A stretch of 64,000 nt of DNA from Verrucomicrobia bacterium Opi.OSU.00C (GCA_002922725.1 PNEW01000002.1:5811-69810), one strand, 5' to 3'. Positions 5,391-56,081 are shown, counted from the stretch's first letter. Notes: a model not told the origin generated them from the sequence alone. Program-made: numbers and translations.

Positions 5391-5455
5391 GGTGAATTGG
5401 GTTCAACAATAAACTTTTCGACAAACCCGCAGGAGTCGCGAAGTGAAAGCTTTAT

Positions 5456-6265: not shown

Positions 6266-6650
6266 TTAAATATGCTTATTTATTACATTGATTATTAATT
6301 ACGATATGGTGCCTTTAGAGATTAAAAAGTCAATAACCCGTATGGGTGATTTAGCTACATTTTCGTTGTAAAATACTGATCTAAGCCCAGCCCTCACAAA
6401 GAAAATAATCATCCATTGCTTGTACTGGATAGGTTTATGCAAATCTAATAGAAATAATAGAGGGGTTCAATTTACTTATTAAAATTTAATCCTACTTAGA
6501 TCTATTTAAACTTCAAAAGTTGTATTTATTATATAATTTATAACTGATTCCCCTACCTTCAATTTATATCCGGATCAATTACCTTTAGTATTAGGTGCTT
6601 ATAAAAAAATATTTACTACCCATCTTAATTTTACCCACCATTAATTATTA

Positions 6651-9536: not shown

Positions 9537-9721
9537 CCTATATATCCAATTTTACAATAGGTTCTCACACCCTAGGAATGGTCTAAATAATCTTCTTATT
9601 ACTGAACACGAATTGTTAAATTGAATTATTAATTTATATATTATACTCGAGATATTTAGATGTACTTTTTTAAAGGCTGGTTGAATTAATTTTGTCATTA
9701 TTCGACAATCCCATATTTGAT

Positions 9722-37700: not shown

Positions 37701-37901
37701 CTCAAAAAAGAACAATGGATTATTATTGATTGGAAAACACATCAAATAGCAGGTCCCGAAATGACCACTAAATTGTACGAACAATTTAAACCACAAATTG
37801 ATGCCTATGCTAGTGCTCTTAGGCATATATATTGTCAACCAGTAAGTGCCTACCTCTATCCAACAGCACTTGGTCAGTTGATAGAAATCAATAAAAGCTG
37901 A
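34731..37901 (+). CDS. addA: AddA-like UvrD/REP superfamily-1 helicase with C-terminal PD-(D/E)XK nuclease domain
   Basis: 1056 aa. Walker A APAGVGKTKA, motif II VILDEAQDT, GDPQQSIYG, CHKAKGLEWD and YVSMTRAR. The C-terminal nuclease motif is LIDFVAYD...IIIDWKTH...QIDAYA. An alternative start at 34788 avoids overlap with the upstream gene. Confidence 0.8.
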   Translation: MDALSSTPPSTLIDVKSLNMDTILSDNVIRQRFVNEHEQNFSVVAPAGVGKTKAIVDRIVNIALTDGERNHSRLRRLVVVTYTKQAADEMHHRTRDAIMQKKVSPEVLGRLNQVYFGTIHSYCLELLRQHGTLIGLPSTIDVTENDELLWSRFLYHTDQLSNILPKKVERHFLRHTQLEPLYLLARKIRVKSVNKQLNTFAHYPDLDLTSLLQFPPNKRSKGKIEMVQKQLQRWLKAMRDDEGFIPPPICEIGGKEFQDLCKASFQPLRDWLSEVGSFLIAHVSNSYRNFRVSQGVLTYDDLIDLTADILKDKTVGAEIRAEGKHVILDEAQDTDPGQFEVLTEIARPESAQGIWLKKGGIPPGTGRFCMVGDPQQSIYGSRTDLNFYQHVHKKLLKDAQGEELFFKVTFRCDEKIVEGINLFFPSILNGKGELGEQVKFVPLKARPNCGSGQIIRKILELPQEMEIKKNHQAITLAYIQAFVGWLKNLEPNDLRARDWSEVAILCPRNEWLEALNRELKASAFSTQVLSRTEQVRTIPSYAWFTALMLVISEPENAFEIAGLLREVFGISDHDLVTYYQYWKKNPGRFPPTAHALQILHTVKHNSIVAEKLNLLTHARQHALTLPLHDAVTYLVDKIHLRERLSKLPFSDSTESQILIDNFITQSVMAETDRMSLSDWTHSLIEKMSDQIKSEPAKDGHIQLLSCHKAKGLEWDAVLLPFFSRPIGFALKNYPQLFYLKGENRSLLAIDKHHEHESYKIQAEREKEKELDRLLYVSMTRARKTLVLFNDEVFFSSNKSSFTERLKISFGKTNNKIWTNLPKSNHPETRGKRAPAPTFSEKIKDITTSLDLARNHAQGKFNRVTPHSLVKSVSALITDRNEPEIILGHEFSEKSLLSSATEYGNWWHKMMEINHWEQDIVSWKNHCSLNVKSTVCPSSERGKKEIDLFFKSDLVEQLLVSKYKIFTEAPLLWSLDNITVYEGLIDFVAYDLKKEQWIIIDWKTHQIAGPEMTTKLYEQFKPQIDAYASALRHIYCQPVSAYLYPTALGQLIEINKS

Positions 37902-37959
37902 AATCTATCTAAGGCTAAAAAAGACCTTTTCAGATCCTGAATAAATTTAAATTCACCCC

Positions 37960-39573
37960 ATGAATACAGTTTTATACTTAAATGCTTACCTTCGATGCAT
38001 GTCTGGGTTTATTATCATATTCTTGCAGATTTTTATACTTGGTGGGTGTTCCCAAATCGATGAATCCGTATCACCACCCAATACTTTTGTCTTCGGTAGA
38101 GGCAGTGATGCACAAAAACTCGACCCAGCGGATATTGATGATGGGGAATCGGTCAATACTCTCGCCCAGATATGTGAAGGTCTTGTTCGCTTTAAAAGCG
38201 GCACTCTTGATATTCAGCCTTGGTTAGCTCGATCCTATACGATCTCAAAGGATGGGCTAACCTACACCTTTGAATTACGTGAGGGAGTTAGATTTCATGA
38301 CGGGACACCTCTCAATGCAGAAACCGCACTTTTCACTTTCAAGCGACAATTGGATAATAGTCATCCGGCTCATTTTTCAAAAGCCAGTTTCCAGTATTGG
38401 AAAAATCTATTTCAAGAAATTAAGACTGTACGTGCAATAGGTCCCATGAGCCTCGAATTTAAACTCAGTGAACCCAATGCTTCCATTCTTTATTCTCTTG
38501 CGACATTCCCCGCCTGGCTCATAAGCCCTATGGCCTTTGAGTCCCATGGAGAAGCAATTGTACGTCGACCAATAGGGACCGGCCCCTACCGTTTCTTAGA
38601 CTGGAAACCTAACCAGGCGATAATCCTTGAGAAAAATCAGGATTATTGGGGTTCAGAAGCAGGGTTTGAACGTCTTATTATGCGCACTATTCCCGATAAT
38701 ACGTTACGTCTCTTAGAACTTAAAGCGGGAAAGATTCATGCACTTGACGGATTACAACCCGCAGAGTTAACGGAATTGGATGACAATAGGAAGTTTACTA
38801 TCCACACTCAACCCGGAATGAATATAGGGTATCTGGCTTTCAGTAGTTACGCCAAACGTCTTCGCTCTCCAGCTATTAGACATGCGATCGCTATGGCAAT
38901 TGATCGTAAGGCAATTGTAGATCTCGCGCTTGATGGTTTCGCGAAAGTCGCTGAATATCCAATCCCACCAGGGTTTCTTGGGGAACCTATTAATAGCCGA
39001 CCTCCCATTATTCACGATCCGGAAGCTGCACGTAAAATCTTGAATAAATATCCGAAGTTACTTGAACAACCTATCGAGCTTCATACTTTTACTGCACCAC
39101 GCCCTTATTTCCCAGATCCTTTGATAATCGCTTCTCTGATTCGCAGTGACCTCGAAAACGTAAACTTAAAGGTCGAGATTATCTCACGAGATTTTAAAAG
39201 CCATCTTATCACGGCACGACAGGGAAACTTCGAACTCGCGCTCCTCGGTTGGTCTGGAGATAATGGTGATCCTGACAACTTTCTTGCAACATTTTTCGCC
39301 AGCTGGGCTGCAGTGGCAGGTTCAGCGACAAATATATCTTTTTATAAAAACAAGGACATGGATAATTTACTTATTACCGGCCGTCAACAGACAGATTTAA
39401 AGCAACGACAGAAAACCTATAGACAAGCACTAATGATCTGGGCTCGAGATCTTCCACTTATTCCCCTTATTCATACTAAGCAAATCGTTGTCACACGATC
39501 TGAGGTAACAGGGTTTCAACTTCAAAAAACAGCTAATTTGTTTTTTGGTCCCATCAGTTGGCAATCACTTTAA
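37960..39573 (+). CDS. ABC transporter substrate-binding lipoprotein, family 5 (peptide/nickel type)
   Basis: 537 aa. Lipobox ILGGC after a hydrophobic leader. Family-5 core: FVFGRGSDAQKLDPA, GTGPYRF, and W...GDNGDPDNFL. Confidence 0.85.
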   Translation: MNTVLYLNAYLRCMSGFIIIFLQIFILGGCSQIDESVSPPNTFVFGRGSDAQKLDPADIDDGESVNTLAQICEGLVRFKSGTLDIQPWLARSYTISKDGLTYTFELREGVRFHDGTPLNAETALFTFKRQLDNSHPAHFSKASFQYWKNLFQEIKTVRAIGPMSLEFKLSEPNASILYSLATFPAWLISPMAFESHGEAIVRRPIGTGPYRFLDWKPNQAIILEKNQDYWGSEAGFERLIMRTIPDNTLRLLELKAGKIHALDGLQPAELTELDDNRKFTIHTQPGMNIGYLAFSSYAKRLRSPAIRHAIAMAIDRKAIVDLALDGFAKVAEYPIPPGFLGEPINSRPPIIHDPEAARKILNKYPKLLEQPIELHTFTAPRPYFPDPLIIASLIRSDLENVNLKVEIISRDFKSHLITARQGNFELALLGWSGDNGDPDNFLATFFASWAAVAGSATNISFYKNKDMDNLLITGRQQTDLKQRQKTYRQALMIWARDLPLIPLIHTKQIVVTRSEVTGFQLQKTANLFFGPISWQSL

Positions 39574-39620
39574 GAATTAAAATTTAATTAGGCTGCAGTT
39601 TTACCTTCCTAACCCTTATC

Positions 39621-40661
39621 ATGATTGTAGCTAATGTACATAAGTTTAAAGTTTTTTTAATCGAATGCTTGCATAAAGGGATAATGTTAATACTCGTTTT
39701 TGTTATTGCGAGTGTGGTCATTTTTACTGCTGTTAATCTTATCCCTGGAGATCCAGTCTCCCTCCGCCTAAAAAACCCTGATCCTACAAGGGTGGCTGCA
39801 ATACGAACAGAATTAGGACTGAACAAACCTTTACCTCATCAATACTTTTATTATGTTATAAGTTTTGTACAGGGCAACTGGGGCAAAAGCTTAATTACTG
39901 GACAAAAAGTTCGAGAAGAGATCTCTACGTATTTTCCCGCTACTATAGAATTAGCACTCATCGCTTTATTTCTAGGTGTTATTTTGGGCCTTGGCGTAAC
40001 ATTAAGTACCCAATGCTTTAAGTCAACTTTATGGCGCAATACTGCGTTCAGCTTAGGAGCATTAGGCCTCACAGTGCCTATTTTCTGGTTGGGCTTTATG
40101 TTCATAGTTATTGGGAGTTTGTGGTTAGGCTGGTTCCCCAGTGGAGGGCGTTTTGATTTTACTCTTCCAGTTCCCCAGGGTAGTGGATTTTTAATTTTTG
40201 ATTCCCTGGCTGCTGGACGTTTGGATTTGTTATGTGTCACTTACCAGTATCTCGCCTTGCCAGTATTTTGTCTTTCACTTTACCCAGCGGCATTGGTTTG
40301 TAATGTTCTAAAAACACGTTTTGCTGATCCACGCTTGGACACCTTAATTCGTGCTCTAAGGGCCAAAGGGCTTAGTGAATCGCGTATTTGGCTTATTCAT
40401 ATTCTTCGGCTACTTAGTGCTCCAGTGATCACTGTCATCGGTACTAATTTCGGTACCCTTCTTTGTGGAGCAGTACTCACAGAATCTGTGTTTTCCTGGC
40501 CTGGCATGGGCCGTTACCTAATAGAAGCGGTGTTGAACCGTGACCTCTTTGTCATCGAGAATGGCCTGCTTTTAATTATCATATTAGCTTTTTTGATTAT
40601 CAGCACTGCAGATTTACTAGCATTTCGTTTGAATCCAACGATGAAGAGCCTTTCCGATTAA
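39621..40661 (+). CDS. ABC transporter permease (DppB/OppB-like)
   Basis: 346 aa. N-terminal NLIPGDPV motif and multiple TM segments. Follows the binding protein. Confidence 0.85.
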   Translation: MIVANVHKFKVFLIECLHKGIMLILVFVIASVVIFTAVNLIPGDPVSLRLKNPDPTRVAAIRTELGLNKPLPHQYFYYVISFVQGNWGKSLITGQKVREEISTYFPATIELALIALFLGVILGLGVTLSTQCFKSTLWRNTAFSLGALGLTVPIFWLGFMFIVIGSLWLGWFPSGGRFDFTLPVPQGSGFLIFDSLAAGRLDLLCVTYQYLALPVFCLSLYPAALVCNVLKTRFADPRLDTLIRALRAKGLSESRIWLIHILRLLSAPVITVIGTNFGTLLCGAVLTESVFSWPGMGRYLIEAVLNRDLFVIENGLLLIIILAFLIISTADLLAFRLNPTMKSLSD

Positions 40662-40667
40662 AAAAGC

Positions 40668-41447
40668 ATGAGTCGTTTAACTACAATTTTTGAATACGCA
40701 TCATGGGGTGCTCTGTGCTTATCGCTTACAGGTTTACTCTACACCCCTTATAATCCAATGGAGCAAGATTTTAGAAGCCTGGCTTTTTCTAGTGCCAGCT
40801 CTGCTCACTGGTTCGGAATCGATGGACTAGGTCGCGACTTCGGCAGTCGTCTTTGGCGTGGTTCAGGTAATACCATTGCTATGGCATTAATGGCTTTGTC
40901 TTTAAACTTTATTATCGGATTGGTTCTTCTCTCCATTGAACAGCGAGGCCCTCGAGTATTACAGCGCATTATTCTACTAGGAATTGGGGTTTGGGTAGCA
41001 GTCCCTGTGCTCCTTATTGGCCTCGTAATCATGGTCTTTCTTAAACCTTCCGTTGTAACACTCATTATTGCTGTTTCACTAGGAAACGTGCCTTTAGTTT
41101 TTCGACAACTACGTATTCTTTGGATCGAGCAACGTAATGCGCTCTATGTTCTGGCCACTGAAACCTTAGGGGCTGGGCGACGGCATCTTTTGTTATATAC
41201 ATTATGGCCCAATCTGAGACCAGACCTTATGGGTCTTGCCAAACTCATCTTAGCTATCAGCATTCTTGAACTAAGTGGATTAGCTTTTCTTGGTCTTATT
41301 GGAGATCCAGATTTTCCAGAACTTGGCGCTATTCTCAAGCAAAATCAGTCTTATCTTTTTCGTAACCCAATGCTTGTTGCCTGGCCTGGATTAATTCTCA
41401 GTACCCTTCTTTTCCTAGTACATTTATCCAAATCGCGATCGTATTAA
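40668..41447 (+). CDS. ABC transporter permease (DppC/OppC-like)
   Basis: 259 aa. HWFGIDGLGRD N-terminal motif typical of the second permease. Starts 6 nt after the first permease. Confidence 0.85.
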   Translation: MSRLTTIFEYASWGALCLSLTGLLYTPYNPMEQDFRSLAFSSASSAHWFGIDGLGRDFGSRLWRGSGNTIAMALMALSLNFIIGLVLLSIEQRGPRVLQRIILLGIGVWVAVPVLLIGLVIMVFLKPSVVTLIIAVSLGNVPLVFRQLRILWIEQRNALYVLATETLGAGRRHLLLYTLWPNLRPDLMGLAKLILAISILELSGLAFLGLIGDPDFPELGAILKQNQSYLFRNPMLVAWPGLILSTLLFLVHLSKSRSY

Positions 41448-43060: not shown

Positions 43061-44071
43061 ATGGATGATCTTGATGTCATTATTCTTAATTCCCTGCTTG
43101 TCTCACGGGATAAGTATATTTCTGGTAATTTTCTTGCAAAAAAAGTGGGGATTTCTCGAGTAGGCATTTGGGCCCGACTAGAAAAACTTCGAGAACAAGG
43201 GTTTACCTTTGATGCAGTACGTCACCTCGGTTATCGTATTAGCCAAGAACCCGATGAGTTAAATGCTTCTCTCATACGTGCTTACCTTAGTTTAGAAAAT
43301 TCTTCTGTAAAAATTGTTTTTTTTCCTGAAATTGACAGTACTAATTCCGAAGCTGAACGACAGTTGGCTGATGGAAGAGAAGTACCATTTATCATAATAT
43401 CTTCTAAACAACAAATGGGCCGCGGTCGATTAGGTCGAAAATGGCATAGCCCAGAAGAAGGTAATATTTATATGAGTTATGTCTTTCGCCCACAACTCCC
43501 ACCGGCACGAATGCAGCCTTTTACATTGTGGATGGGCCTTAACATTTGTGAATTGTTAAATAGGTTCTGTGATTTGCCAGTTAAATTAAAATGGCCAAAT
43601 GATTTAGTCCTTAATAATAAAAAAGTTGCAGGTATGTTAACTGAAGCTAGAGTTGACTCCGACCAGATGCTTGATCTTGTTTTCGGACTCGGTTTGAATG
43701 TGAATAGCGACTGTAAACAATGGCCTTCTGAAATAGCGCCCAACGCTACCTCACTCGCTTCAGAAATCGGAAATTTCCTGCCGATCAACAATTTTGCGGC
43801 AAACCTTATTATTGTAGGAGTGAAGGCGTATCAACAGTTTAGTGCTGGTAATTATAATACAGATTTTTTCAAACTTTGGGATCGTTATAATGCATTAAAA
43901 TTAAAATCTGTAACTGTTAAGACTCAGGTTTCATCTTTAAGTGGGAAGGTAGAAGGGATTGATGATGAGGGTTCATTACTTTTAAAAGATGCCCTTGATA
44001 AAAAACATGTCCTGCGAGTAGGTGAAGTTAGTTTAGGCAACTCCGAAATACTATCTAGTATATCCACATGA
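43061..44071 (+). CDS. birA: bifunctional biotin-[acetyl-CoA-carboxylase] ligase / biotin operon repressor BirA
   Basis: 336 aa. N-terminal HTH (ISGNFLAKKVGISRVGIWARLEKLREQG), catalytic loop QQMGRGRLGRKW and KWPNDL. Confidence 0.9.
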   Translation: MDDLDVIILNSLLVSRDKYISGNFLAKKVGISRVGIWARLEKLREQGFTFDAVRHLGYRISQEPDELNASLIRAYLSLENSSVKIVFFPEIDSTNSEAERQLADGREVPFIIISSKQQMGRGRLGRKWHSPEEGNIYMSYVFRPQLPPARMQPFTLWMGLNICELLNRFCDLPVKLKWPNDLVLNNKKVAGMLTEARVDSDQMLDLVFGLGLNVNSDCKQWPSEIAPNATSLASEIGNFLPINNFAANLIIVGVKAYQQFSAGNYNTDFFKLWDRYNALKLKSVTVKTQVSSLSGKVEGIDDEGSLLLKDALDKKHVLRVGEVSLGNSEILSSIST

Positions 44072-44847
44072 AGATTTTTTCTATCGATATAGGTAATACT
44101 ACCACCCGATTTGGACTAATTGTTGAGGATCAGACAAAATACACAGCAAATGTTTTAACTCATTCTCTCCAAGAAATGGATAATGGGTTGTCGACTGCAT
44201 TAAAAGATGTTTATTTGCGTAAGGATTCACTTGATGGTATTGCTTTTAGTTCTGTCGTTCCAGCCGCCACTAAATGGGTGGAAGACATACTATCAATGAC
44301 TAAATTTTCTGTCCCTTTCTTTCATCTAACTTGTGAAAATTGTCCAATTCCTATTAATTACCCGAATCCACAAGAAATCGGACAAGATAGATTAGCCAAT
44401 GCCATTGGTGCCAGGATACTTTACGGCATACCTACAGTTGTTATCGATATGGGAACAACAGTAAATTTCGATATTGTTACAAAAAATGGTTACGAAGGAG
44501 GGATCATCGCCCCAGGATTGGAAGTTATTACTCGCTATCTTCATGAACAAACGGCATTGCTACCTCAACTCAATCCCAAAGAATTAATCGTTTCCACCGG
44601 AATGGGAAAAACCACTATTGAAGCAATGAAAATAGGCTGCGTTGTAGGCTTTGATGGTATGATTCGATCACTATTGGATTGTGTGCGAGCTGAAATAAAT
44701 CAACTTGGGTATTCGGAACCTACAATCATTGCAACGGGAGGAAGTACAGGGATTCTACCACAAAAGTGGCTTGAAGATATTGAATTTAATCCTGACATCA
44801 CCCTACAAGGTCTCGCCGCAGCTTTTATTCAATGCAAAAAAGGTTGA
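44068..44847 (+). CDS. coaX: type III pantothenate kinase
   Basis: 259 aa. IDIGNTTTRFG, VVIDMGTTVNFD and IIATGG motifs. ATGA overlap with the birA stop. Confidence 0.9.
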   Translation: MKIFSIDIGNTTTRFGLIVEDQTKYTANVLTHSLQEMDNGLSTALKDVYLRKDSLDGIAFSSVVPAATKWVEDILSMTKFSVPFFHLTCENCPIPINYPNPQEIGQDRLANAIGARILYGIPTVVIDMGTTVNFDIVTKNGYEGGIIAPGLEVITRYLHEQTALLPQLNPKELIVSTGMGKTTIEAMKIGCVVGFDGMIRSLLDCVRAEINQLGYSEPTIIATGGSTGILPQKWLEDIEFNPDITLQGLAAAFIQCKKG

Positions 44848-44923: not shown

Positions 44924-45964
44924 ATGCTCAAACAAGAACATAGTATCGAAGTAAATAACCTAACAAAATATTATGGCCCGGTAATGGCTATTCATAAAGT
45001 CTCTTTCAATGTTGGAAAAGGAGAAATTGTAGGTTTTCTTGGTCCAAATGGCGCGGGGAAAAGTACTACCATGCGAATCCTCAGTGGGCTGATTACTGCG
45101 AAATCAGGATCCGCAAAAATATGTGGTATTCCCATTGCCAGCAGTCCCGATGAAATAAAAAAACACATTGGGTATATGGCAGAAAACAATCCACTTCCCG
45201 AAGACATGCGGGTCGTCGAGTACTTATATTATCGAGGTTGGCTTAAAGAAATTCCACGTAACCAGTTAAAAGCTCGTGTCGAAGAAACACTTGATTTATG
45301 TGATTTAAATCGAACGGCGCGACGAAAAGTCATTGCTAACCTTTCGAAAGGGTATCGACAACGCGTTGGTATTGCTGATGCAATTCTATCTGAACCAGAA
45401 GTTATTATCATGGATGAACCCACAATCGGTCTCGATCCTCACCAGGTTTTAATGATTCGTGACCTCATAAAAAATTTGCGAGGCAAAATGACGGTTATAA
45501 TATCAAGCCATATACTTTCAGAAGTGGAATTATATTGTGATCGAGTAATCATTATTAACCAAGGCCACATTGTGGCTTGTGGAACATCAGAGAGTTTATG
45601 CAAAGAATTTATCAAAAAAACAACCTATACTCTAAACTTGAAGGGAAATACATCTGATCTTGATTCACTGTTAAAGGGAGTTGACCCAGAGCTTGAGATC
45701 AGCTCATCGCTTCCCGATATAAATAAAGATTATTACGATCTTGAGCTAACAACACCCAATACGTATGATTTGTGTGAGAAGATTTTAACACGATTGTATG
45801 AACATCCGAAATTCCGAGTGCGCGAGATCAGACGAAAGGTACCCCACCTTGAAGATATATTTCTTGCAGCTACACGACGCAGTTGGAACGAAGATATTCC
45901 ATTACCAATCACGAAAATTGATAGTCGAAAAAAGAATAATCAAAAAACTGTCGTAGTTGAATGA
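44924..45964 (+). CDS. ABC transporter ATP-binding protein (ABC-2/GldA-like)
   Basis: The internal ATG at 44924 gives MLKQEHSIEVNNLTKYYG. Walker A GPNGAGKST, signature LSKGYRQR, Walker B IIMDEPTIGLD. The upstream part of track ORF 44705.. overlaps coaX. Confidence 0.9.
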   Translation: MLKQEHSIEVNNLTKYYGPVMAIHKVSFNVGKGEIVGFLGPNGAGKSTTMRILSGLITAKSGSAKICGIPIASSPDEIKKHIGYMAENNPLPEDMRVVEYLYYRGWLKEIPRNQLKARVEETLDLCDLNRTARRKVIANLSKGYRQRVGIADAILSEPEVIIMDEPTIGLDPHQVLMIRDLIKNLRGKMTVIISSHILSEVELYCDRVIIINQGHIVACGTSESLCKEFIKKTTYTLNLKGNTSDLDSLLKGVDPELEISSSLPDINKDYYDLELTTPNTYDLCEKILTRLYEHPKFRVREIRRKVPHLEDIFLAATRRSWNEDIPLPITKIDSRKKNNQKTVVVE

Positions 45965-46716
45965 GCCACTTTATTTGTTTATTAAAACATGAGTTGAGAG
46001 TACTATTTATTGCTCCGTCAACTTACGTTACTAGCGTCATCTTTCTCCTTCTAATGGGATTCATTTATATACTCATCCTAGCCGATTTTACTTTACACCC
46101 CCACAACAATCTTCCCACTGAATACTTTTTCCAACTCTATTGGATTCCTGTTTTTTTTATTGTCCCACTCTTGACGATGAAGAGTATAGCTGAAGAACGA
46201 AGAATTGGCACTTTAGAGACCCTCATGACTACTCCAGTTACGGTTTTGGAGATTGTTTTTAGCAAATTTTTCGCCGCTTATTTATTCTATTGTTTATTAT
46301 GGATGCTAACTCTAACTTTTCCTCTTCTTGTGACTCTGACAATTGGATCTTCGGCGATGACAGTGAAGCTTCTAGATCCAGCAACCTTATTAGGAGGGTA
46401 TACATTTATAGCAATTAGCGGGTTGTTATTTATTTCGATAGGAATATTTTCAAGCAGTCTGACACGTAGTCAATTGGTCGCAGGAATGTTATGCTTTAGT
46501 ATTCTTTTTATTATTATATTGGGTGTACCCGCGCTTAGAACCCAAAGTATTGGGTGGCTGGAATGGATGGTAGGGGCACTGGAATATTTTAACAATTTTA
46601 ACCACCTTGAAGATTTCAGTCGTGGTGTAATTGACACCAGACATATTGTGTTTTACTTTAGCTACTCAACGCTGGTTCTCGGAATATCCGTGCTTATCAC
46701 TGAATCAAAAGTTTAA
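45961..46716 (+). CDS. ABC-2 type transporter permease (GldF-like)
   Basis: 251 aa with six hydrophobic segments. EERRIGTLETLMTTPV motif. ATGA overlap with the ATPase stop. Confidence 0.75.
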   Translation: MSHFICLLKHELRVLFIAPSTYVTSVIFLLLMGFIYILILADFTLHPHNNLPTEYFFQLYWIPVFFIVPLLTMKSIAEERRIGTLETLMTTPVTVLEIVFSKFFAAYLFYCLLWMLTLTFPLLVTLTIGSSAMTVKLLDPATLLGGYTFIAISGLLFISIGIFSSSLTRSQLVAGMLCFSILFIIILGVPALRTQSIGWLEWMVGALEYFNNFNHLEDFSRGVIDTRHIVFYFSYSTLVLGISVLITESKV

Positions 46717-46729
46717 CCCCATTTTTCTA

Positions 46730-48205
46730 ATGGCCGTTGTTGAAGATTTTAAATATGTTAACTGGATAAAGAGAATTAACCAATTGGTACAAATTCTTCT
46801 CTGTATCAGTTTTATCATTGGTTTAAATTATTTCGCCAAAAATCTTTACTGGCGTTCTGATCTCACCCGTGACCATATTTATTCTTTATCACCAGAATCA
46901 TTAGCTTATATTCGTCAAATAGAAAAACCAATTAAGATTATCGTTACTCTTTCTCCTGACGCCATTGAGGGTGAAATGGAACAGGTTTTTAAACATGTGA
47001 GAAATTTGCTTAAAGAATACGAATACGCGGGCCATATAGGTGGTAAGAAAAAAATTGAAATTGAAGTAGTCGACGTCCTTAAAGAAAGGAAACGAGCCGA
47101 CTACCTTGCCCGCACCTATGGAATAGATCAAGAAGATGTAGTACTAGTGGTATGTGAAGATCGTCAACACCGACTCATTTACTCCGATATTATCGAAATG
47201 GAAAATGGTCAGGTGTCTGCTTTTAAAGGTGAGCGTGCCTTTACCTCAGCGTTGATAGATGTATCTAATACAGAGCAGCAAAAAATATACTTTATCTCTG
47301 GGTATGGCGAAATGCATCTAGATAGTGTCGATCCTTTACGCGGATTATCAAATGTTGCTGAAAAACTTAAGTGGGGAAATATCTCACTTGAGACTTTAAA
47401 TATTACAATCGCGAGCGAAATCCCTGAGGATGCCGATCTCTTGATCTTAGCTTCTCCACAAGGCCCATACCGCCCCCAAGATGTAGAGAAATTGCGTAAT
47501 TATCTTACCGATCGGGCCGGAAAACTCATTGTTTTAATTGAACCGGCAATTGAGCATGGCTTAAGTGATTTGTTTTATGAATGGGGGATAATCTCAGATG
47601 ACATGGTGGTGCTTGATATGGGGAAAGATTTTCAAGCCGCAAGTGGCGATCTTCTCATTCGTCGGTTTGCTGGACACCCTATTACTGCTATCCTACGTAA
47701 TAACCCTATACCTGTAATTGCGGGCTTAAGTCGGCCTGTAAGGCCCAATCTTGAACGCCCAACAGATGACAGGCTTATCATAACCCCACTCATAAGTAGT
47801 TCTCCTGAAAGTTGGGCCGAACGCTCTTATCATGACAGTCAGGACCTTAAATATAATCCCGAGGTGGACTTGAAAGGGCAGGTAAGTCTGGCTGCTATAT
47901 CAGAAAGGAAAGTTTCCTCAAGTTTAGGGATAGATGTTAAAGGTGGCCGACTTATTGTATTTGGTAATACTGACATTATTTCCAATCATCGTATTGGATC
48001 AATAGGAAATATTATGCTTATCCTTAATACGATCAACTGGTGCCTAGATCGTGAACAATTACTCGCTATTCAACCCAGACCAGTTGAAAAGTTCCATCTA
48101 CTGCTCAGCAGACAAGAATTAACTCAACTCAGCCTCGTACTTTTGAGTTTACCGGGTGCAGTCGCCATTTGTGGAATAATGATTTACTACATTCGGAAAA
48201 ATTAA
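46730..48205 (+). CDS. GldG-family ABC-transporter auxiliary protein
   Basis: The ATG at 46730 gives an N-terminal TM followed by RSDLTRDHIYSLSPES, typical of the GldG family. Large periplasmic middle region and a C-terminal TM anchor (LVLLSLPGAVAICGIMIYYIRK). Confidence 0.75.
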   Translation: MAVVEDFKYVNWIKRINQLVQILLCISFIIGLNYFAKNLYWRSDLTRDHIYSLSPESLAYIRQIEKPIKIIVTLSPDAIEGEMEQVFKHVRNLLKEYEYAGHIGGKKKIEIEVVDVLKERKRADYLARTYGIDQEDVVLVVCEDRQHRLIYSDIIEMENGQVSAFKGERAFTSALIDVSNTEQQKIYFISGYGEMHLDSVDPLRGLSNVAEKLKWGNISLETLNITIASEIPEDADLLILASPQGPYRPQDVEKLRNYLTDRAGKLIVLIEPAIEHGLSDLFYEWGIISDDMVVLDMGKDFQAASGDLLIRRFAGHPITAILRNNPIPVIAGLSRPVRPNLERPTDDRLIITPLISSSPESWAERSYHDSQDLKYNPEVDLKGQVSLAAISERKVSSSLGIDVKGGRLIVFGNTDIISNHRIGSIGNIMLILNTINWCLDREQLLAIQPRPVEKFHLLLSRQELTQLSLVLLSLPGAVAICGIMIYYIRKN

Positions 48206-48244
48206 TTTATTCCCTGCTCAGTTAACTAAAGTCTTATTTCCTCT

Positions 48245-50086
48245 ATGCGATATAAATTTACGATATTACTAATTATTATTAATCTCAGCTTATTCAGCTT
48301 GATATTTTATGTTGATAAGAAAGCTGCCACGATTGGTGCATTTGAACGTGCTAAGCGATTAGTATTTCCACCTGGATTTGTAGAAGATAGTGATCGCCTC
48401 GAGATTGAAGGTCAAAAGCTGACACATAATTGGGTCTTGTTACGTAAAATGGAGCAATGGATGCTCGATAGGCCCATAAACTGGCCCGCAAATATTTATG
48501 CTGTAACACGGATGCTAAATCAACTCAAATTTCTTGAATGGGAGACTCGTTTTTCTGTTAGTGAAATTAAAAAAACGGGGCGAAGCCTAGCAGATTATGG
48601 TTTGGAGGAACCCAAACTTACACTTTCACTGAGCCACAGTGGCAAAGAAAAAACCCTTAAAATTGGTGAATCAACAGAAATAGGTAACCGCCTCTATATT
48701 CTTTCACCTGAGGAAGAAGAAATTTATGTTGTAACCCGCGAGTTACTTCAAAGTATCTCAGTCGACCTTCAAGATCTGCGCAACCAGAATATTTTCGATA
48801 TTCCTCTCTTTGAAGTACGTTCAATAAGTATTCAGATTACAAATCCAAGTAATCTTAAGGTACGTCTCGCACGTAATGACAAAAATTGGGTTTTTGAATC
48901 GCCCATCCAAACGGAAGCTGATTCTCAACGCGTCATGAATACGATTAACCGCCTGACCAGACTAAAGGTAATTAATTTTCAAGGAACTGGTCGTGCACAG
49001 GAGATTTTAGCTAATCCTTCCTTTCGTATAACACTTGAAGGTAATAACCGAAGACAGACAGTTCTCGTTGGTGAAGAACTGACAGAAAATGGGCAAAAGA
49101 GTTATCAGGCAAGAATGGAATCCAATCCGACGGTTTTTACTCTTGCTGCTGCACCTATTCATAACCTACGTGATGTACAAGAAAGTCTAAGGGATAAAAG
49201 TTTTGTCGATATAAACCCTTCTGAACTCACTTCTATTGAAATTGTGATGTCTAATGCTTCCGTTGAACTACAAAAATTAGAAACCGGAATATGGCAGGTC
49301 CTACAGTCAAATAATACTGGAGATTTTTCAACTTGGACAGCGGATCCTCAATTACTCAACGAAGTAATTAGCGCACTTCATGAAATGGAAGCCGTTCAAT
49401 TCATTAGTGATGCGCCATCCGTTGCGGATCTTGAAAAATATGGGTTTAATAACCCCCAACGCCAAGTCATACTTCAAACTCAAAATAAATCGACTCTTCT
49501 TATAGGAGACCTAGATCCTAAATCAAGATTACTGTTTGCAAAGATGATTGATTCCCCCACTATATATAAGATAAAAAAGGACATCCTCCATCTACTTAAA
49601 ACACGAGCATTATATTATCGATTGAGGGTAATTGAAGAGCTGCCTCAAGGAGCACGTGTACAAAGGATCTCCCTTACTGATTCAGTAAGTGGAACCGTAA
49701 TTTTTGATAAAAAAATCGATCCCTCTAGTGAATCTTGGTCTAAGGTGCTTAAAGAATACCCAGAGAAAAAAAAGAAAGCTATTTTAGGGCTAACAGATAC
49801 AATGAGGAAATTTGAAGTAAAAGAATATATACGTAACACTTTCAGTAGTCGATTTAAACTTGGAGATAAAGAGTTTTCATGGAGATATCATTTAAATACC
49901 GAAATTCATTTACCGGGCGGCAATGAAGATAGAATACAAAACCGCACTTTTTCTTTTAGTGAACGACTAGGTGGAACAACCCAAATCGGGGGATCCCCCG
50001 ATTCCAATGTGATTTTTACTATTAAACAAAACCTGATCGATTCACTATTTGAATTGACCTTTGACCACACCCCCCCCGCATGGTAA
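48245..50086 (+). CDS. DUF4340-like protein (N-terminal anchor, repeated periplasmic domains)
   Basis: 613 aa with an N-terminal TM (FTILLIIINLSLFSLIFYV). Sits directly after a GldG-family gene, the usual DUF4340 context. The frame after the C8 run 50070-50077 stays open to 50213. Confidence 0.6.
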   Translation: MRYKFTILLIIINLSLFSLIFYVDKKAATIGAFERAKRLVFPPGFVEDSDRLEIEGQKLTHNWVLLRKMEQWMLDRPINWPANIYAVTRMLNQLKFLEWETRFSVSEIKKTGRSLADYGLEEPKLTLSLSHSGKEKTLKIGESTEIGNRLYILSPEEEEIYVVTRELLQSISVDLQDLRNQNIFDIPLFEVRSISIQITNPSNLKVRLARNDKNWVFESPIQTEADSQRVMNTINRLTRLKVINFQGTGRAQEILANPSFRITLEGNNRRQTVLVGEELTENGQKSYQARMESNPTVFTLAAAPIHNLRDVQESLRDKSFVDINPSELTSIEIVMSNASVELQKLETGIWQVLQSNNTGDFSTWTADPQLLNEVISALHEMEAVQFISDAPSVADLEKYGFNNPQRQVILQTQNKSTLLIGDLDPKSRLLFAKMIDSPTIYKIKKDILHLLKTRALYYRLRVIEELPQGARVQRISLTDSVSGTVIFDKKIDPSSESWSKVLKEYPEKKKKAILGLTDTMRKFEVKEYIRNTFSSRFKLGDKEFSWRYHLNTEIHLPGGNEDRIQNRTFSFSERLGGTTQIGGSPDSNVIFTIKQNLIDSLFELTFDHTPPAW

Positions 50087-50237
50087 AGGTCTAGCCAAGG
50101 AGCCTCTTCCTCCTTTGATTGATCAGGATGAAAATGAAACTATTCCTCTAGAATCACCTGATTCATCTATCATTATTTCTCCACACCCAATCTTGAAGGA
50201 ACAAAAACAATAACTGGTATTTATTGATTTTAACCAG

Positions 50238-53012
50238 TTGAAAATGATAGGCGAAAAAGCCGAATTCAGAATGAAGGATAGACTAACAGGGATTTGCAGA
50301 GTCTGTCAGCTTTGTATTACGTATTTTCTAATCACCGTTGCTCTCATTCAATCTGCCATTCTTATTTTATCACGTTTTAATCATGAGTTACCTGTTCCGC
50401 GTTTTCTTTTTAACAAAATTGAAAATGAATTGGCGGAAATTGGTCTTTACCCAAAAACTGGTGAGTTCTATGTCGACTTCACAGGTAAAGTCTTTGTTCG
50501 CAATTTAAAATTAGCACTGATCGAAAATGGGGAACTTTTAGTCAACAGCGAAGCTGCTCATTTCAGTTTTCAATTACCTTCGCTTATGCTTGGTCGACTT
50601 CATATTAATATGTTAAGGCTAAGTCATACTACCTTATATTTACCAGCACTATATTCAGCCAGTGGTGTAAATGAGCCTGTAATTAAGAAGCTGAACTGCA
50701 CTCTAGAACTGGATGGATTTAATTGGCAAATAAAACAATTAATTTGTCATCTAAATAATCTTCAAATGGAAGTAAAAGGTGGCGGGAACCAATCATCAAA
50801 AAGATGGTTTTTAACTGAACCTTTGCCGTTAATTGAAGAACATCGTGCTCTACCTGAGTCAATTATGGACCGTTATTATTTAGTATGTAGCAGAATCATA
50901 ATGCTAAACCCTATTTTCAGGAAATTTAAAGATCCTACTTTAAGTATTACTTTGCAAAAGGATCCCAAAGGTATACCTAGAGCTGATATTGAATTTATGG
51001 CGCTCAATGCCAACTTTAATAATATTATTCAGCTGGGACGAAATCGGTTAAAAGTAGCTGAAGTTGGTTACTTCAAATTGGATCCTCTTGGACTTGTAAC
51101 CGTTGAAACAGATTCAATTTCTTGGTTAAATGTGGGGCAAGCAGAGAATGTAAAGGCGAGGTTTAATATAAATTCACTTCATCCCCTTCAAATTAAAATT
51201 CCTAAAGAAATACTTCTGGTCGCTGATAGAATTTGGAGTGATGATTTTCTTACTGAAAACTTTACAGCTGATATTCTTACTCAACAATTTCCTCTAGTTA
51301 GTGGTAATGTTCTTACATATCTGGATGGAGCCCCATTAAAGGCCAATGGAACTGTTGATTTAGAAAATAAAGCTTCAAGCCTGAATATCGTTTCTTGGGT
51401 TAAAATAGAAAACCTAATCCAACACCCTCTGTTGGATAAATCATCATTATTAAAAAATCTATCCTTTAATGAGCCTCCTCGTATTGAGATAAACGCTGTA
51501 ATAGATAAAGGGTTTAACCTCGATTATCTTGATTATACTCTGGATGCTTCCCAGTTCACTATAGAAGACATAGCAATTGATCGAATAATCGCTAATGGAT
51601 CATTTTCCCCCCCTCACCTTTTCGTCGACAATGCTGTTATTGAAAAAAACGGATATCGAATCTCTGGTTCCTATAAACAAAATCTTATCGAAAGTGATTT
51701 TCGGTTTCTCCTCAATGGGACCATCCTGCCTTGCGATTTTAACAACGTGATGCGGCCTTGGTGGGCCGAGCTATGGAGTAAATACAAATTTCACGAAAAT
51801 TTTATTACCGCAGATATTGATGTTCACGGATATTGGAATGATAAATTGAAGCGTCAGTTTTACGGTGAGTTAAAGGCTAAAAATTTTGAATATAAAGGGC
51901 TTCTATTGCAAACCGGTAGCGCCAATGTCTGGGGTTACCCCGGCTACTTGCGAGTTTTTAATATAAAGTCTCAGCGAAGTGAAGGTTACGCTTCAGGTTT
52001 CATAGATATGTTTTTTGCCCTCGACCCCTTAAAAACAAGAACATATCATTTCGATATTGAAACACGCTTTACGATGCCTGAACTGAGTCCCATACTTGGA
52101 AAAGATGTTTCGAAGATCATGGATAATTTCAATTTTACCTCGGCACCGAACATACATTATGTCGGTATGCGGCACATCCAGGGTAAAGACGAACATCTTA
52201 ATCGTGACATCACTTTCGAAGCTGTAGTGGACAAACCTTATACTTTTTATGAATACCCTTTTGATTATCTATCACTCCATGGTCATCTTACCGGTGATTC
52301 TCTCGATATTAACACCATTGATTTCGAAATCGGAGGTGGTAAAGGCTCTGGAAATATGCATTTTCAGACAACAAACCATGGGCCGAGAATTAAATTTGGT
52401 CTCCTCCTTAAAGAGGCATTATATTCGCCTCTACTTGAAATAATTGGTTATAAAAACAAACATCTAAAGCCTCCGGAGGAAGGGAATAAAAATTACCTCA
52501 GTGATTTGGTCGAGGGCAAACTTGACATCTATCTTAACGCAATTGGCATTCCAGGAGATCTATTAAGTTTTGAAGGTAAAGGTTGGTTCAATATAACTAA
52601 AGCAGAACTGGGGAAATTTAAAATTGTTGGACTTCTCTCCCGTCTCTTTGGGAGTACCATTTTAGGATTTACACCCCTTAACCTTGAAACAGCCACAGGT
52701 GATTTTATCTTAGATCGAAAAAAAATTCATTTTCCAAAAATTACCTTTACCGGCCCTTATAGTATTGTCCGTGCTGACGGGAATATTATCCTACCAAATA
52801 AAGATCTCGATTTCCGTGCTTTTGTTTCTTATCTCGAAAATAAAGAAAACCCTTTTATTAATATAATTGGTATACCTTTTTTCCCTCTCGGCCAGGCTCT
52901 TCAATTACGGTTACGAGGTACACTAGGAGAACCTCAATGGCGATTTGCACTTGACCCACGAAAATCGATTGAAGGGAACATACCGTCTTTAAAGCCTGAC
53001 AAGGCAGAATAG
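50238..53012 (+). CDS. large membrane-anchored AsmA-like protein (YhdP/TamB-type)
   Basis: 924 aa, starting at TTG 50238 or ATG 50244. A single N-terminal TM (LCITYFLITVALIQSAILIL), a long beta-rich body, and a C-terminus like AsmA-family ends (GDFILDRKKIHFPKITFTGPYSIVRADGNIILPNKDLDFRAFV). The call rests on pattern recognition only. Confidence 0.45.
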   Translation: MKMIGEKAEFRMKDRLTGICRVCQLCITYFLITVALIQSAILILSRFNHELPVPRFLFNKIENELAEIGLYPKTGEFYVDFTGKVFVRNLKLALIENGELLVNSEAAHFSFQLPSLMLGRLHINMLRLSHTTLYLPALYSASGVNEPVIKKLNCTLELDGFNWQIKQLICHLNNLQMEVKGGGNQSSKRWFLTEPLPLIEEHRALPESIMDRYYLVCSRIIMLNPIFRKFKDPTLSITLQKDPKGIPRADIEFMALNANFNNIIQLGRNRLKVAEVGYFKLDPLGLVTVETDSISWLNVGQAENVKARFNINSLHPLQIKIPKEILLVADRIWSDDFLTENFTADILTQQFPLVSGNVLTYLDGAPLKANGTVDLENKASSLNIVSWVKIENLIQHPLLDKSSLLKNLSFNEPPRIEINAVIDKGFNLDYLDYTLDASQFTIEDIAIDRIIANGSFSPPHLFVDNAVIEKNGYRISGSYKQNLIESDFRFLLNGTILPCDFNNVMRPWWAELWSKYKFHENFITADIDVHGYWNDKLKRQFYGELKAKNFEYKGLLLQTGSANVWGYPGYLRVFNIKSQRSEGYASGFIDMFFALDPLKTRTYHFDIETRFTMPELSPILGKDVSKIMDNFNFTSAPNIHYVGMRHIQGKDEHLNRDITFEAVVDKPYTFYEYPFDYLSLHGHLTGDSLDINTIDFEIGGGKGSGNMHFQTTNHGPRIKFGLLLKEALYSPLLEIIGYKNKHLKPPEEGNKNYLSDLVEGKLDIYLNAIGIPGDLLSFEGKGWFNITKAELGKFKIVGLLSRLFGSTILGFTPLNLETATGDFILDRKKIHFPKITFTGPYSIVRADGNIILPNKDLDFRAFVSYLENKENPFINIIGIPFFPLGQALQLRLRGTLGEPQWRFALDPRKSIEGNIPSLKPDKAE

Positions 53013-53210: not shown

Positions 53211-53690
53211 TTGGACTTTAAATTAATAAAGCAAATTGTAGAATTAATGAAAAGATCCGGTCTCACTGAATTTGAGGTCGAAGAAGAAGGCCTAAAAATT
53301 CGTATTTGCCGAAAGAATGGGGTCGATACTCCTCAGATCTTTACTACAGCTACCTCTCCACCTTATCCTGTTATCTCATCTGAATTAGGGCAGAAAGAGA
53401 TTGTCACTCAGAACGAACAAAAGGGGGCAGAAACTCAAGAAGATAAAAATATTATTTTTATAGATTCACCGATGGTGGGGACTTTTTATCGTTCACCTAC
53501 CCCCGATAGTCCCCCTTTTATCGAAGTAGGAGCTGAAGTGAATACTGAAACAATAGTGTGTATTGTTGAAGCGATGAAGGTAATGAATGAAATTCAAGCA
53601 GAGGTTAAAGGTAAAGTTATTGAAATACTCGTGGAAAATGGTGCGACAGTTGATTACGGACAACCAATTTTTAAACTAAAAAAAGCCTGA
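53211..53690 (+). CDS. accB: acetyl-CoA carboxylase biotin carboxyl carrier protein
   Basis: 159 aa with a TTG start. Pro/Ala-type linker and the biotinylation motif VEAMKVMNEI. Confidence 0.9.
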   Translation: MDFKLIKQIVELMKRSGLTEFEVEEEGLKIRICRKNGVDTPQIFTTATSPPYPVISSELGQKEIVTQNEQKGAETQEDKNIIFIDSPMVGTFYRSPTPDSPPFIEVGAEVNTETIVCIVEAMKVMNEIQAEVKGKVIEILVENGATVDYGQPIFKLKKA

Positions 53691-53700
53691 GTATTAAATC

Positions 53701-55089
53701 ATGTTTGAAAAAATTCTCATCGCTAATCGCGGCGAGATTGCACTGCGAATTATTCGCACGTGCAAAGAGCTCGGTATTAAAACAGTCGCTGTTTATTCTG
53801 AAGCTGATGAACAGTCTTTACATGTGCAACTTGCAGATGGAGCCATTTGCATCGGACCAGCTCAAAGTTCGGAAAGTTATCTTAAGCCTGACCGTATAAT
53901 CAGTGCGGCAGAAATTGCCGATGTGGATGCTATTCACCCTGGTTATGGTTTCCTTGCAGAAAAAGCAGAATTTGCAGAACAATGTGAAAGTTGTAATATT
54001 AATTTTATCGGCCCCCCATCTGATGTAATAAGTAAGATGGGTGATAAATCTATAGCGCGCGAAACTATTAGGAAATCTCGCATACCAGTAATCCCTGGAA
54101 GTGAAGGCACTCTTGAATCTAGGTCAGAGGCCCTTAAAATTGCCCAAAAAATTGGTTTCCCTGTAATAATTAAAGCTGTAGCTGGTGGTGGCGGCAAAGG
54201 TATGCGCTTAGCGCGTAATGCAATGACATTCTCCAAAGAATTTGATACCGCACAGTTAGAAGCTGAGAAAGCCTTTGGTGATAATTCTGTTTACGTTGAA
54301 AAGTATATAACTAATCCAAGGCATATTGAGTTTCAGATCATTGCCGACAAGCAAGGAAAAACCTTACATCTAGGAGAACGTGATTGCTCGGTTCAACGAA
54401 GATATCAAAAACTAATAGAGGAAGCACCTTCCCCATTTCTCACACCAGATCTACGTAAAAAGATGGGCCGTTATGCCATCCGTGCAGCAGAGGCCTGTAA
54501 CTACGTAAACGCAGGAACTATCGAATTTCTTGTCGATAAAGACGGTAATTATTATTTTATCGAAATGAATACCCGCATACAAGTTGAACATGGGGTTACG
54601 GAAGAAGTAACAGGAATAGATTTAATTAAGGAACAAATACTAATTGCCGCAGGTGAATCGCTGAAGTTTGATCAACGGGACATAAAAATTAATCAACATG
54701 CTATCGAAACCAGAATCTGTGCAGAAGATCCAGATCGCAATTTTTCCCCCAGCCCAGGTGAAATCACCCTTTATTACCAACCTGGTGGTCAAGGCGTACG
54801 AGTTGACACACATATATATGGCGGTTATTATATTCCAACTCATTATGATAGTATGATTGGGAAACTTATTACCACGGGGAAAACACGCGATCTAGCTCTG
54901 GATCGAATGCATCGCGCACTTGGCGAATATATTATTCGTGGTGTAAAAACTACCATTCCTTTTAATATGGCAGTAGTGAATGATCCCATATTTCGTCGAG
55001 TTGGTGCAACTACCAATTTTATCGATGAGTTTCTCAACGGTAAACCTAAAAACTTTTTTAACAATAAACCCATTAGGACCCATGAGTAA
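53701..55089 (+). CDS. accC: acetyl-CoA carboxylase biotin carboxylase subunit
   Basis: 462 aa. [42 protein letters not shown]. Confidence 0.95.
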
Positions 55090-55556
55090 GAAAAAATCAA
55101 ATAAAAGGGATGATTCAGACAAAGCTGTAAAGATTCGTGATATTCCCACCATTAATGAAGAGTCATCCTCAATGGGTGAAATCAAAATTAACCATACAGT
55201 GATCGCAAGTATCGTAAAACTTGCTGCTCTTGAAGTTCCTGGTGTCGTCATGGTTGCTGGTGGCTTCGTTGATGAACTTGCGGGTATGTTTTCAAAAAAA
55301 AGATTCGGGCACTGGGATTCGAGTCGAAGAAAATGAGAATGGTCACTACGAAATCATGATCCGAGTCATCCTTTCCTTTGGAATTGAGCTTGCAAGAACC
55401 GCTTACGAAATCCAAACCTCAGTGCGCGACCAAGTTAGTAAAATGACAAATAAAGATGTCGCTAAAGTTGATGTTATTATTGATGGGGTGAAGACACACG
55501 AATCAACCACAGAAGAAGATAAAAATAATTGGGTTGAACCTGAACATACTGACTAA
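55082..55556 (+). pseudogene. Asp23/Gls24 (YqhY-like) family protein, frameshifted in this assembly
   Basis: From ATG 55082 (8-nt overlap with the accC stop), frame 2 reads ...[42 protein letters not shown] and then stops after 9 more codons. Frame 0 continues [27 protein letters not shown]...VKMTNKDVAKVDVIIDGV to 55556. Deleting one A of the A8 run 55294-55301 gives 157 aa with standard Asp23 architecture. Confidence 0.8.
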
Positions 55557-55577: not shown

Positions 55578-56081
55578 TTGGAATACATCACTAGAGTCCT
55601 TGATTCGCTGCCAAATATCCCTTATCCTTGGGCTGGAGCGGGCGTTTTCCTCTTGCTTCTTATTTTCTGGTTCTTAAGAAAACGACAACCCCGTTCATTC
55701 ACTGCTTTTATAAGTAATTCTGGCCAAATAATGATTACGCGATCAGCTATTAGTGAATTGGCTCAGAGAATATGTGATCAAACCGATTCGGTTGGAAAAT
55801 GTTCAACCCAGGTAAAAACCCAGGGTGGGATATTGAAAATTGAAGTTCGAATTCAAATGGTGACTGGTTCCATACTTGGTGATGTAACTTCAGATCTACA
55901 AAACAGACTCAACCATGCTTTAGGTGAAATTCTGGGAATTGAAAATTTGGGAGAAATTAACGTGATTGTTACCGGGTTTATTGGTAATCATGAATCTTCA
56001 CCTCTACCGTCAAGCACTGAATCAGTCGAAAGTGATTATTCACAGGATTTTTCAGACCTCGATACTAAATCAGTCAATTAA
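55578..56081 (+). CDS. membrane-anchored protein, possibly the Asp23 partner AmaP
   Basis: 167 aa with a TTG start. N-terminal TM (WAGAGVFLLLLIFWFL) then a soluble domain. Position directly after an Asp23-family gene. Weak sequence basis. Confidence 0.35.
   Translation: MEYITRVLDSLPNIPYPWAGAGVFLLLLIFWFLRKRQPRSFTAFISNSGQIMITRSAISELAQRICDQTDSVGKCSTQVKTQGGILKIEVRIQMVTGSILGDVTSDLQNRLNHALGEILGIENLGEINVIVTGFIGNHESSPLPSSTESVESDYSQDFSDLDTKSVN

Follow-up and report, generated by a model that had tools for sequence, protein, structure and literature searches.

A conserved five-gene cluster in Opitutales that may link an ATP-binding cassette transporter to an AsmA-like lipid bridge

Are there bacteria in which an AsmA-like envelope protein is joined to an ATP-driven transporter? 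The question is raised by five genes at positions 44924-53012 of a 64,000-nucleotide (nt) stretch of DNA from Verrucomicrobia bacterium Opi.OSU.00C (GCA_002922725.1 PNEW01000002.1:5811-69810), the whole of which is referred to here as the window. An earlier note on this DNA had described the genes as a candidate energised, envelope-spanning transport module. The data presented here suggest that the five genes constitute one conserved Opitutales operon encoding a single envelope machine that would operate by a lipid-bridge mechanism, a reading to which a probability of roughly 0.45 is assigned.

All five genes lie on the plus strand. The first encodes an ATP-binding cassette (ABC) transporter ATPase of 346 amino acids (aa; 44924-45964), identified as an open reading frame (ORF) matching PF00005 and a relative of the GldA/DrrA-like subfamily. 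It is followed by an ABC-2 type permease of 251 aa (45961-46716), an ORF which is GldF/NosY-like and matches PF12730 and PF12679, and by a GldG-like auxiliary protein of 491 aa (46730-48205) with N- and C-terminal transmembrane (TM) anchors and a GIFT-type domain that is assigned to the periplasm. The fourth product is an N-anchored DUF4340 protein (PF14238), which occupies 48245-50086 as read (613 aa) and 48245-50213 when a frameshift is repaired (655 aa). The fifth is an AsmA/YhdP-like protein which ends at 53012 and starts either at an ATG at 50244 (922 aa) or at a TTG at 50238 (924 aa).

The five genes are tightly packed, as had been described; the ORFs were re-found, as were the ATGA overlap between the ATPase stop codon and the permease start codon (45961-45964) and the gaps of 13 nt (permease to GldG-like gene) and 39 nt (GldG-like gene to DUF4340 gene). 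The last junction, previously put at about 25 nt after repair, requires a small qualification. The repaired DUF4340 gene ends with a TAA at 50211-50213, which is 24 nt from the TTG and 30 nt from the ATG, and the ATG is the more likely start of the AsmA-like gene because a protein of 99% identity (P0001) is 922 aa long. Overlapping junctions were also present within the five-gene unit of a divergent locus, L003. Scans for promoters and terminators yielded counts equal to those in shuffled sequence and were hence uninformative.

Conservation of the gene order was assessed from both ends of the unit. When one genome per species was scanned, five loci were detected, all in metagenome-assembled genomes (MAGs) named 'Opitutales bacterium'. 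The loci collected from the AsmA-like side (L001-L004, L006-L012 and L017-L019) include duplicates and represent approximately 10 distinct genomes, with a GC content of 39-66% and AsmA-like proteins down to ∼21% identity. The order ATPase, permease, GldG-like, DUF4340, AsmA-like held in all of the fetched loci whose upstream DNA was long enough, and the cultured Nibricoccus aquaticus (CP023344) is among the genomes concerned. The same order was present in 21 metagenome contigs, and two further divergent clades were covered (L003/L004 and L091/L094/L095). Conservation in related genomes, on which the earlier note had made its proposal depend, therefore extends to ∼10 genomes and 21 contigs.

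The genes surrounding the unit were variable. In L003 and L004 the flanks were replaced by NifU and PrmA genes, in L018 by a PAS histidine kinase gene and in L006 by an S1 gene on the opposite strand, while in L022, L036-L038 and L048 the five genes were kept without birA and acc. Mere local synteny was ruled out as the explanation for the adjacency by the persistence of the five genes amid these differing flanks and in divergent clades.

The view from the transporter side was obtained by a metagenome scan with the permease, which yielded 80 loci whose permeases are 30-56% identical to that of the window and which were scored with our own hidden Markov models (HMMs). The first four genes were in order in each locus with room for them. 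Loci were scored for an AsmA-like gene when 1 kb or more of sequence followed the DUF4340 gene. Where permease identity was at least 40% the AsmA-like gene came next in 17 of 18 loci, the exception being L051; below 40% it came next in three of 12 (L091, L094 and L095), which form a clade of their own with permeases 34-39% identical to that of the window. The proposed association of the ABC module with the AsmA-like gene is thus kept well beyond local synteny, but it becomes infrequent at the greater distances.

A second association was found in the DUF4340 protein. The product of the window gene scores 166 bits against PF14238 (cut-off 25) over three stretches and has a single N-terminal TM segment by hydropathy scan, which agrees with its earlier description as an N-anchored, multi-domain protein; sequence and profile searches of the PDB gave no match. 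In modules linked to an AsmA-like gene, the alignment of the DUF4340 protein spans the entire 628-position orthologue HMM, whereas in stand-alone modules only positions 1 to ∼355 align, or that part is repeated. The C-terminal region of ∼250 aa was present in 22 scorable loci, with an AsmA-like gene next in 21 of these, and absent from 10 loci, none of which had an AsmA-like gene (Fisher test 1.7e-7, phylogeny not corrected for). The pattern is not a mere reflection of overall relatedness, because the permeases of L091, L094 and L095 are as distant as those of modules lacking the AsmA-like gene. The C-terminal ∼250 aa are therefore the obvious candidate for a contact, or adaptor, between the transporter and the AsmA-like protein. 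The supplement of a transposon-sequencing study of V. spinosum lists the DUF4340 gene VSP_RS39600 with an essential domain, and a preprint on SAR11 predicts that a DUF4340 protein belongs, as a subunit, to the ABC transporter encoded next to it (10.64898/2025.12.11.693642).

Assignment of the fifth protein depended on its family. Sequence and profile searches of the PDB with the 924-aa protein or its family were without a match, and word-indexed homologue searches retrieved only five relatives with the single protein and only six proteins with an 85-sequence alignment. An exhaustive profile search produced 2290 cluster representatives at E <= 1e-3, 540 of them at E <= 1e-30; members are mostly 880-960 aa and align end to end. 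When 50 members were scanned singly against Pfam, 44 matched PF13116 (YhdP; best E = 6.2e-12), nine DUF748, seven AsmA and three TamB. The YhdP matches always ran C-terminus to C-terminus, with the last ∼200 aa on profile positions ∼955-1177 of 1224. The 85-sequence alignment was then compared by hhalign with E. coli proteins, LptD serving as a beta-rich control. YhdP scored 89% (E = 2.3e-6; family columns 663-897 to YhdP residues 1004-1255) and AsmA 81% (E = 1.3e-5; 412 columns), as against 0.3% for LptD (E = 0.21; 82 columns). Two relatives, one from N. aquaticus (WP_138223112.1) and one from an Opitutales MAG, carry the NCBI name 'AsmA-like C-terminal region-containing protein'. We conclude that the fifth protein does belong to the AsmA/YhdP superfamily, as a distant member linked to it only transitively, within a subfamily that, judged by these comparisons, escapes current curated models. 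The earlier note had held its proposal refuted if no AsmA-like fold or profile match were seen; the family-level similarity to YhdP and AsmA leaves the proposal standing.

The predicted architecture is consistent with this. The hydropathy scan detected one hydrophobic segment, at residues ∼17-41, and none elsewhere. An AlphaFold2 (AF2) model made with 85 sequences had a mean predicted local distance difference test (pLDDT) score of 86.8 and a predicted TM-score (pTM) of 0.66; a run on six sequences was unusable (pLDDT 48.9). The model has a TM helix at residues 6-47, followed by ∼50 strands in blocks of 5-7 with short helices between them, as the description of a single-anchor, beta-rich protein had anticipated. 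Such a rhythm of blocks and helices is expected of a repeating beta-groove protein. The strands are amphipathic, with a family-averaged even/odd hydropathy difference of 2.35 compared with 1.22 +/- 0.14 in within-strand shuffles, and the proteins share a conserved C-terminal motif, LxGTLxxPxW. Evolution has been much faster in the AsmA-like protein than in the transporter core: lineages with 45-55% permease identity share only 20-30% identity in it (window, L003, L006, L007, L018, L028, L033, L037, L048, L074, L091, L094 and L095).

The transporter core was examined with Pfam and NCBIfam, topology being taken from the hydropathy scan. The ATPase scores 101.7 bits against PF00005 (ABC_tran, cut-off 25) and has no TM segment, and the permease exceeds the cut-offs of two ABC-2 models (PF12730, ABC2_membrane_4, 35.6 bits, cut-off 27; PF12679, 34.3 bits) and has ∼6 TM segments; the first two products are thus a cytoplasmic ABC ATPase and an ABC-2 permease, as proposed. 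The motif PLLTMKSIAEERRxGTLE is conserved in the permease alignment, and searches of the PDB with the permease by sequence and profile found no match. The GldG-like protein matches PF09822 (ABC_transp_aux) at 74.9 bits (cut-off 34.7) and PF23357 (DUF7088) at 50 bits, with TM segments at residues 18-36 and 467-485. Its family profile matches the IFT52 GIFT domain in the PDB (E = 1.7e-5), which fits the published GIFT relationship, and more weakly the oligosaccharyltransferase subunit Wbp1 (E = 0.033). The best NCBIfam models for the three proteins are GldA (TIGR03522, 272.2 bits), GldF (TIGR03518, 116.7 bits) and GldG (TIGR03521, 72.6 bits). Because all three scores are far under the equivalog cut-offs (402.6, 288.5 and 389.85 bits respectively), the proteins are, on these models, relatives of the Flavobacterium gliding proteins and not orthologues, and true GldAFG orthology was ruled out. 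The earlier placing of the third protein in the GldG family holds for its domain, but not at the level of the GldG equivalog.

The arrangement suggests the following machine. An ATPase dimer and a dimer of the GldF-like ABC-2 permease would sit in the inner membrane, and the GldG-like GIFT-domain protein and the three-repeat DUF4340 protein would be anchored alongside the permease and reach into the periplasm. The AsmA/YhdP-like protein, held by one N-terminal helix, would extend a long amphipathic beta-sheet groove toward the outer membrane. ATP hydrolysis may drive the permease to extract a lipid, or some other amphipathic component of the envelope, out of the inner membrane, and this cargo would pass by way of the periplasmic accessory proteins and the AsmA-like groove to the outer membrane, with the DUF4340 C-terminal region as the candidate adaptor joining transporter to bridge. 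The logic of Lpt, in which LptB2FGC feeds a bridge, would thereby be rebuilt from different parts. Protein contact, transport direction, lipid cargo and energetic coupling are all points that we infer from gene context. A lipid is the most plausible cargo in view of the fatty-acid-synthesis neighbours and the presumed role of AsmA-like proteins. The conserved core of five genes encodes no outer-membrane partner.

Several observations weigh against this reading. The 924-aa protein itself has no Pfam or NCBIfam match even at E <= 10, and the YhdP matches of its family all fall under the 46-bit gathering score (best 44.7 bits). By hhalign neither TamB (1.4%, E = 0.038; 58 columns) nor YdbH (0.3%, E = 0.19; 40 columns) was detected. 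The earlier likening of the C-terminus to AsmA, YhdP and TamB thus stands for the first two at the level of the family, but not by hhalign for TamB and not by a direct model match. Foldseek comparison of the AF2 model with the PDB returned beta-rich matches of the LptD, ApoB100 and TonB-receptor type with TM-scores of 0.1-0.23 and a root-mean-square deviation of ∼40 Å, which were judged non-specific. Ten sampled loci contained the ABC/GldG/DUF4340 module without an adjacent AsmA-like gene, and because these four-gene modules are the more distant ones the AsmA-like linkage is clade-restricted. Neither count of association, that for the AsmA-like gene or that for the DUF4340 form, is corrected for phylogeny. 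L051 has the long DUF4340 form with another gene downstream, whose product is an Ala-rich, membrane-anchored coiled-coil protein that has a Pro-rich linker and matches nothing in Pfam (5144-6838 of that locus), and an AsmA-like gene was absent from 1.6 kb downstream. In P. aeruginosa a racemase gene comes after the one for the DUF4340 protein PA4040, which apparently has no AsmA-like neighbour (PMC8088628), and the AsmA-like proteins of E. coli have no known ABC partner (review PMC10345924).

The best of the alternatives is that the five genes are co-regulated and functionally independent, the AsmA-like protein being a passive phospholipid bridge and the ABC/GldG/DUF4340 proteins exporting something else from within a shared envelope and lipid neighbourhood (birA-coaX ... 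accBC). This is possible, at odds well short of even. It would account for the E. coli proteins just mentioned and for the richness of the neighbourhood in lipid-synthesis genes; the four-gene module occurs on its own in many lineages, and the four proteins of the SAR11 type are predicted to form a complex without an AsmA-like partner (10.64898/2025.12.11.693642). Against independence count the persistence of the five genes where the birA and acc flanks have been lost or replaced, the junctions, which are very tight and in L003 overlapping, and the DUF4340 C-terminal region, which tracks the AsmA-like gene (21/22 versus 0/10) in a manner that co-regulation alone leaves unexplained.

An unlikely variant is that the machine is assembled as proposed and carries a cargo other than bulk phospholipid, such as a glycolipid, a lipid-linked glycan, a lipoprotein or a surface polymer; within such a machine the GIFT-domain protein would handle a sugar moiety and the AsmA-like protein would act as conduit or scaffold. 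The kinship of the GldG-like GIFT domain with IFT52, and its weaker Wbp1 match, would suit this variant. Lipid-linked polymers are moved by some ABC-2 (type V) exporters, Wzm/Wzt and TarGH among them, and GldAFG is tied to surface motility in Flavobacterium and not to bulk lipid export. The flanking genes, however, belong to fatty-acid and not glycan synthesis, the conserved core holds no glycosyltransferases, and the AsmA-like proteins studied so far have been implicated in glycerophospholipid transport (PMC8593681, PMC8912898, PMC13542527). A retrograde or maintenance role, in which the transporter would draw mislocalised outer-membrane lipid down the bridge, has a precedent in the ABC-powered Mla system (PMC10345924), and direction is unreadable from sequence, but Pfam scans of the cluster turned up neither an MlaA-like nor an MCE component and this role is very improbable. 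ABC-2 or type V folds are, moreover, typically exporters or extruders.

The reading frames of the window were compared with those of L019, a contig with 99.5% identity and only three indels in 21.7 kb. All three break frames in the window. The tail of the DUF4340 gene contains a run of eight C residues (50070-50077) where L019 has seven; the L019 orthologue is intact at 655 aa, and other orthologues are 632-665 aa, which bears out the earlier suspicion of a frameshift. At ∼55067 a T is missing from the window and the tail of accC is disturbed, and at ∼55294 a run of eight A residues in place of seven splits an Asp23 gene. Most simply, the three are sequencing or assembly errors; two of them lie in homopolymer runs, and the pattern resembles homopolymer error more than pseudogenisation. 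A genuine DUF4340 pseudogene and a genuine Asp23 pair were both ruled out by the extra base in the respective run relative to L019. The single Asp23 gene (157 aa, ∼55082-55556), whose halves read as ORFs 54980-55336 and 55221-55556, is unbroken in L001, L007, L017 and L019.

Upstream of the unit, on the same strand, are birA (43061-44071; Pfam BPL_LplA_LipB and HTH_11) and coaX (44068-44847; Pan_kinase), and downstream are accB (53211-53690; Biotin_lipoyl) and accC (53701-55089; Biotin_carb_N, CPSase_L_D2 and Biotin_carb_C), with its tail disturbed by the 1-nt deletion. The accB and accC genes follow directly, as the earlier note had stated; the membrane-stress Asp23 'pair' that it placed after them is the one frameshifted gene. 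The birA-coaX pair precedes the unit in most Opitutales loci as well as in the divergent L094 and L095, being frequent without being universal, and accB-accC lies downstream in many loci, though not all. That these recurrent flanks belong to fatty-acid synthesis is a hint of a lipid cargo. The complete layout, birA-coaX, the five genes and accB-accC, recurs in the divergent L091, L094 and L095 and also in L074, and places the module with the biotin ligase and pantothenate kinase genes on one side and, on the other, those for the biotin-dependent step that opens fatty-acid synthesis. In stand-alone modules the birA, coaX and acc flanks are missing; the genes after them are unrelated and include those for an isoleucyl-tRNA synthetase with LspA, a PPDK-like protein, Rpe, pentapeptide proteins, a sigma-54 regulator and a GGDEF protein.

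Other genes related to the subject were observed near some loci. An ORF of 1116 aa lies ∼2 kb downstream of the stand-alone module in L084, on the opposite strand (8510-11860, minus), and matches the N-terminus of Pfam YhdP (E = 6.2e-9) and, weakly, the HMM of the AsmA-like family (4e-17). L017, an Opitutales-like contig, encodes a 276-aa protein of the DUF748 family, of the AsmA-like clan, ∼7 kb downstream of its five-gene module (18412-19242, minus). In E. coli K-12 (L013, 3392458-3407266) yhdP is situated ∼9 kb from accB-accC, and prmA directly follows the AsmA-like gene in L003 (12403-13272) and is near the cluster in L007 (18724-19680) and L017 (14650-15534). In E. coli, panF and prmA follow accBC. 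The proximity of prmA, accBC and yhdP could be due to chance or be a trace of ancient synteny.

After the Asp23 gene there is a conserved ORF of 167 aa (55578-56081) that has no Pfam match and is also present in L007, L017 and L019. The wider window (32095-41447 and 17562-19772) contains an AddAB-like nuclease/helicase pair, a peptide ABC importer of the Opp/Dpp type and a TonB-dependent receptor, together with a SulP transporter and a DUF255 thioredoxin-like protein, and overall is ordinary chromosomal DNA. The host is a diderm member of the Verrucomicrobiota, order Opitutales, with an outer membrane, because the window encodes a TonB-dependent receptor and the matching loci are from Opitutales MAGs.

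A link between AsmA-like genes and ABC-2/GldG/DUF4340 modules was not described in the full texts searched, subscription literature being outside the scope of the search, which accords with the statement of the earlier note that none was known. In a review of AsmA-like proteins, Lpt and Mla are the only systems for which ABC transporters are brought up (PMC10345924). The retrieved reviews and primary papers on AsmA-like bridges name no energy source for phospholipid transfer. The cluster suggests an ATP-powered version of the lipid bridge. The fuller claim, that it is the first natural AsmA-like lipid transfer protein hard-wired to an ATP-driven ABC extractor, with the DUF4340 C-terminal region as adaptor, is put forward as doubtful. 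If true, it would offer a tractable answer to what powers lipid flow along AsmA-like bridges and a first biochemical role for the widespread GldF/GldG/DUF4340 transporter family. The operon constitutes a testable hypothesis of an Lpt-style, ATP-fed bridge, and cultured hosts exist, such as N. aquaticus and other Opitutales. Even without coupling, a large and poorly annotated AsmA-like subfamily (2290 representatives) has been defined, as has its consistent genomic association.

Comparison with known systems places the cluster among several partial relatives. The modules of SAR11 HIMB59, of P. aeruginosa (PA4040) and of loci L069-L087 have the same first four genes in the same order, and differ in having no AsmA-like gene downstream and a DUF4340 protein without the ∼250-aa C-terminal region. 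Flavobacterium GldA, GldF and GldG belong to the same three protein families, in the same order (ATPase, ABC-2 permease and GldG-type ABC_transp_aux), but here the scores are sub-equivalog, the host is a member of the Opitutales and there are two extra partners, DUF4340 and AsmA-like. In NosDFY, a permease of the NosY/GldF type, together with its ATPase, acts on a protein partner in the periplasm instead of translocating a solute; that partner, NosD, is a beta-helix concerned with copper delivery, and the homology considered here is that of the shared ABC-2 permease family.

The fifth protein resembles E. coli YhdP and AsmA in its one N-terminal TM anchor and long, beta-rich periplasmic body, and its C-terminal 200-480 residues align with the YhdP C-terminus (89%) and with AsmA (81%). 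It differs in size (∼920 aa; YhdP has 1266 aa and AsmA 617 aa), and its gene occupies the last place in an ABC-transporter operon, a position that E. coli yhdP, asmA, tamB and ydbH do not share. Compared with the Lpt system (LptB2FGC - LptA - LptDE), the parts are unrelated: Lpt has the LptFG permease, a beta-jellyroll bridge and the LptD barrel, whereas the cluster has an ABC-2 permease, an AsmA-like bridge and nothing LptD-like (0.3% by hhalign of the family). The likeness to Lpt lies in the design, an ABC transporter combined with anchored periplasmic groove proteins leading to the outer membrane (PMC10345924), which the five Opitutales genes would share if, as we infer, transporter and bridge are coupled.

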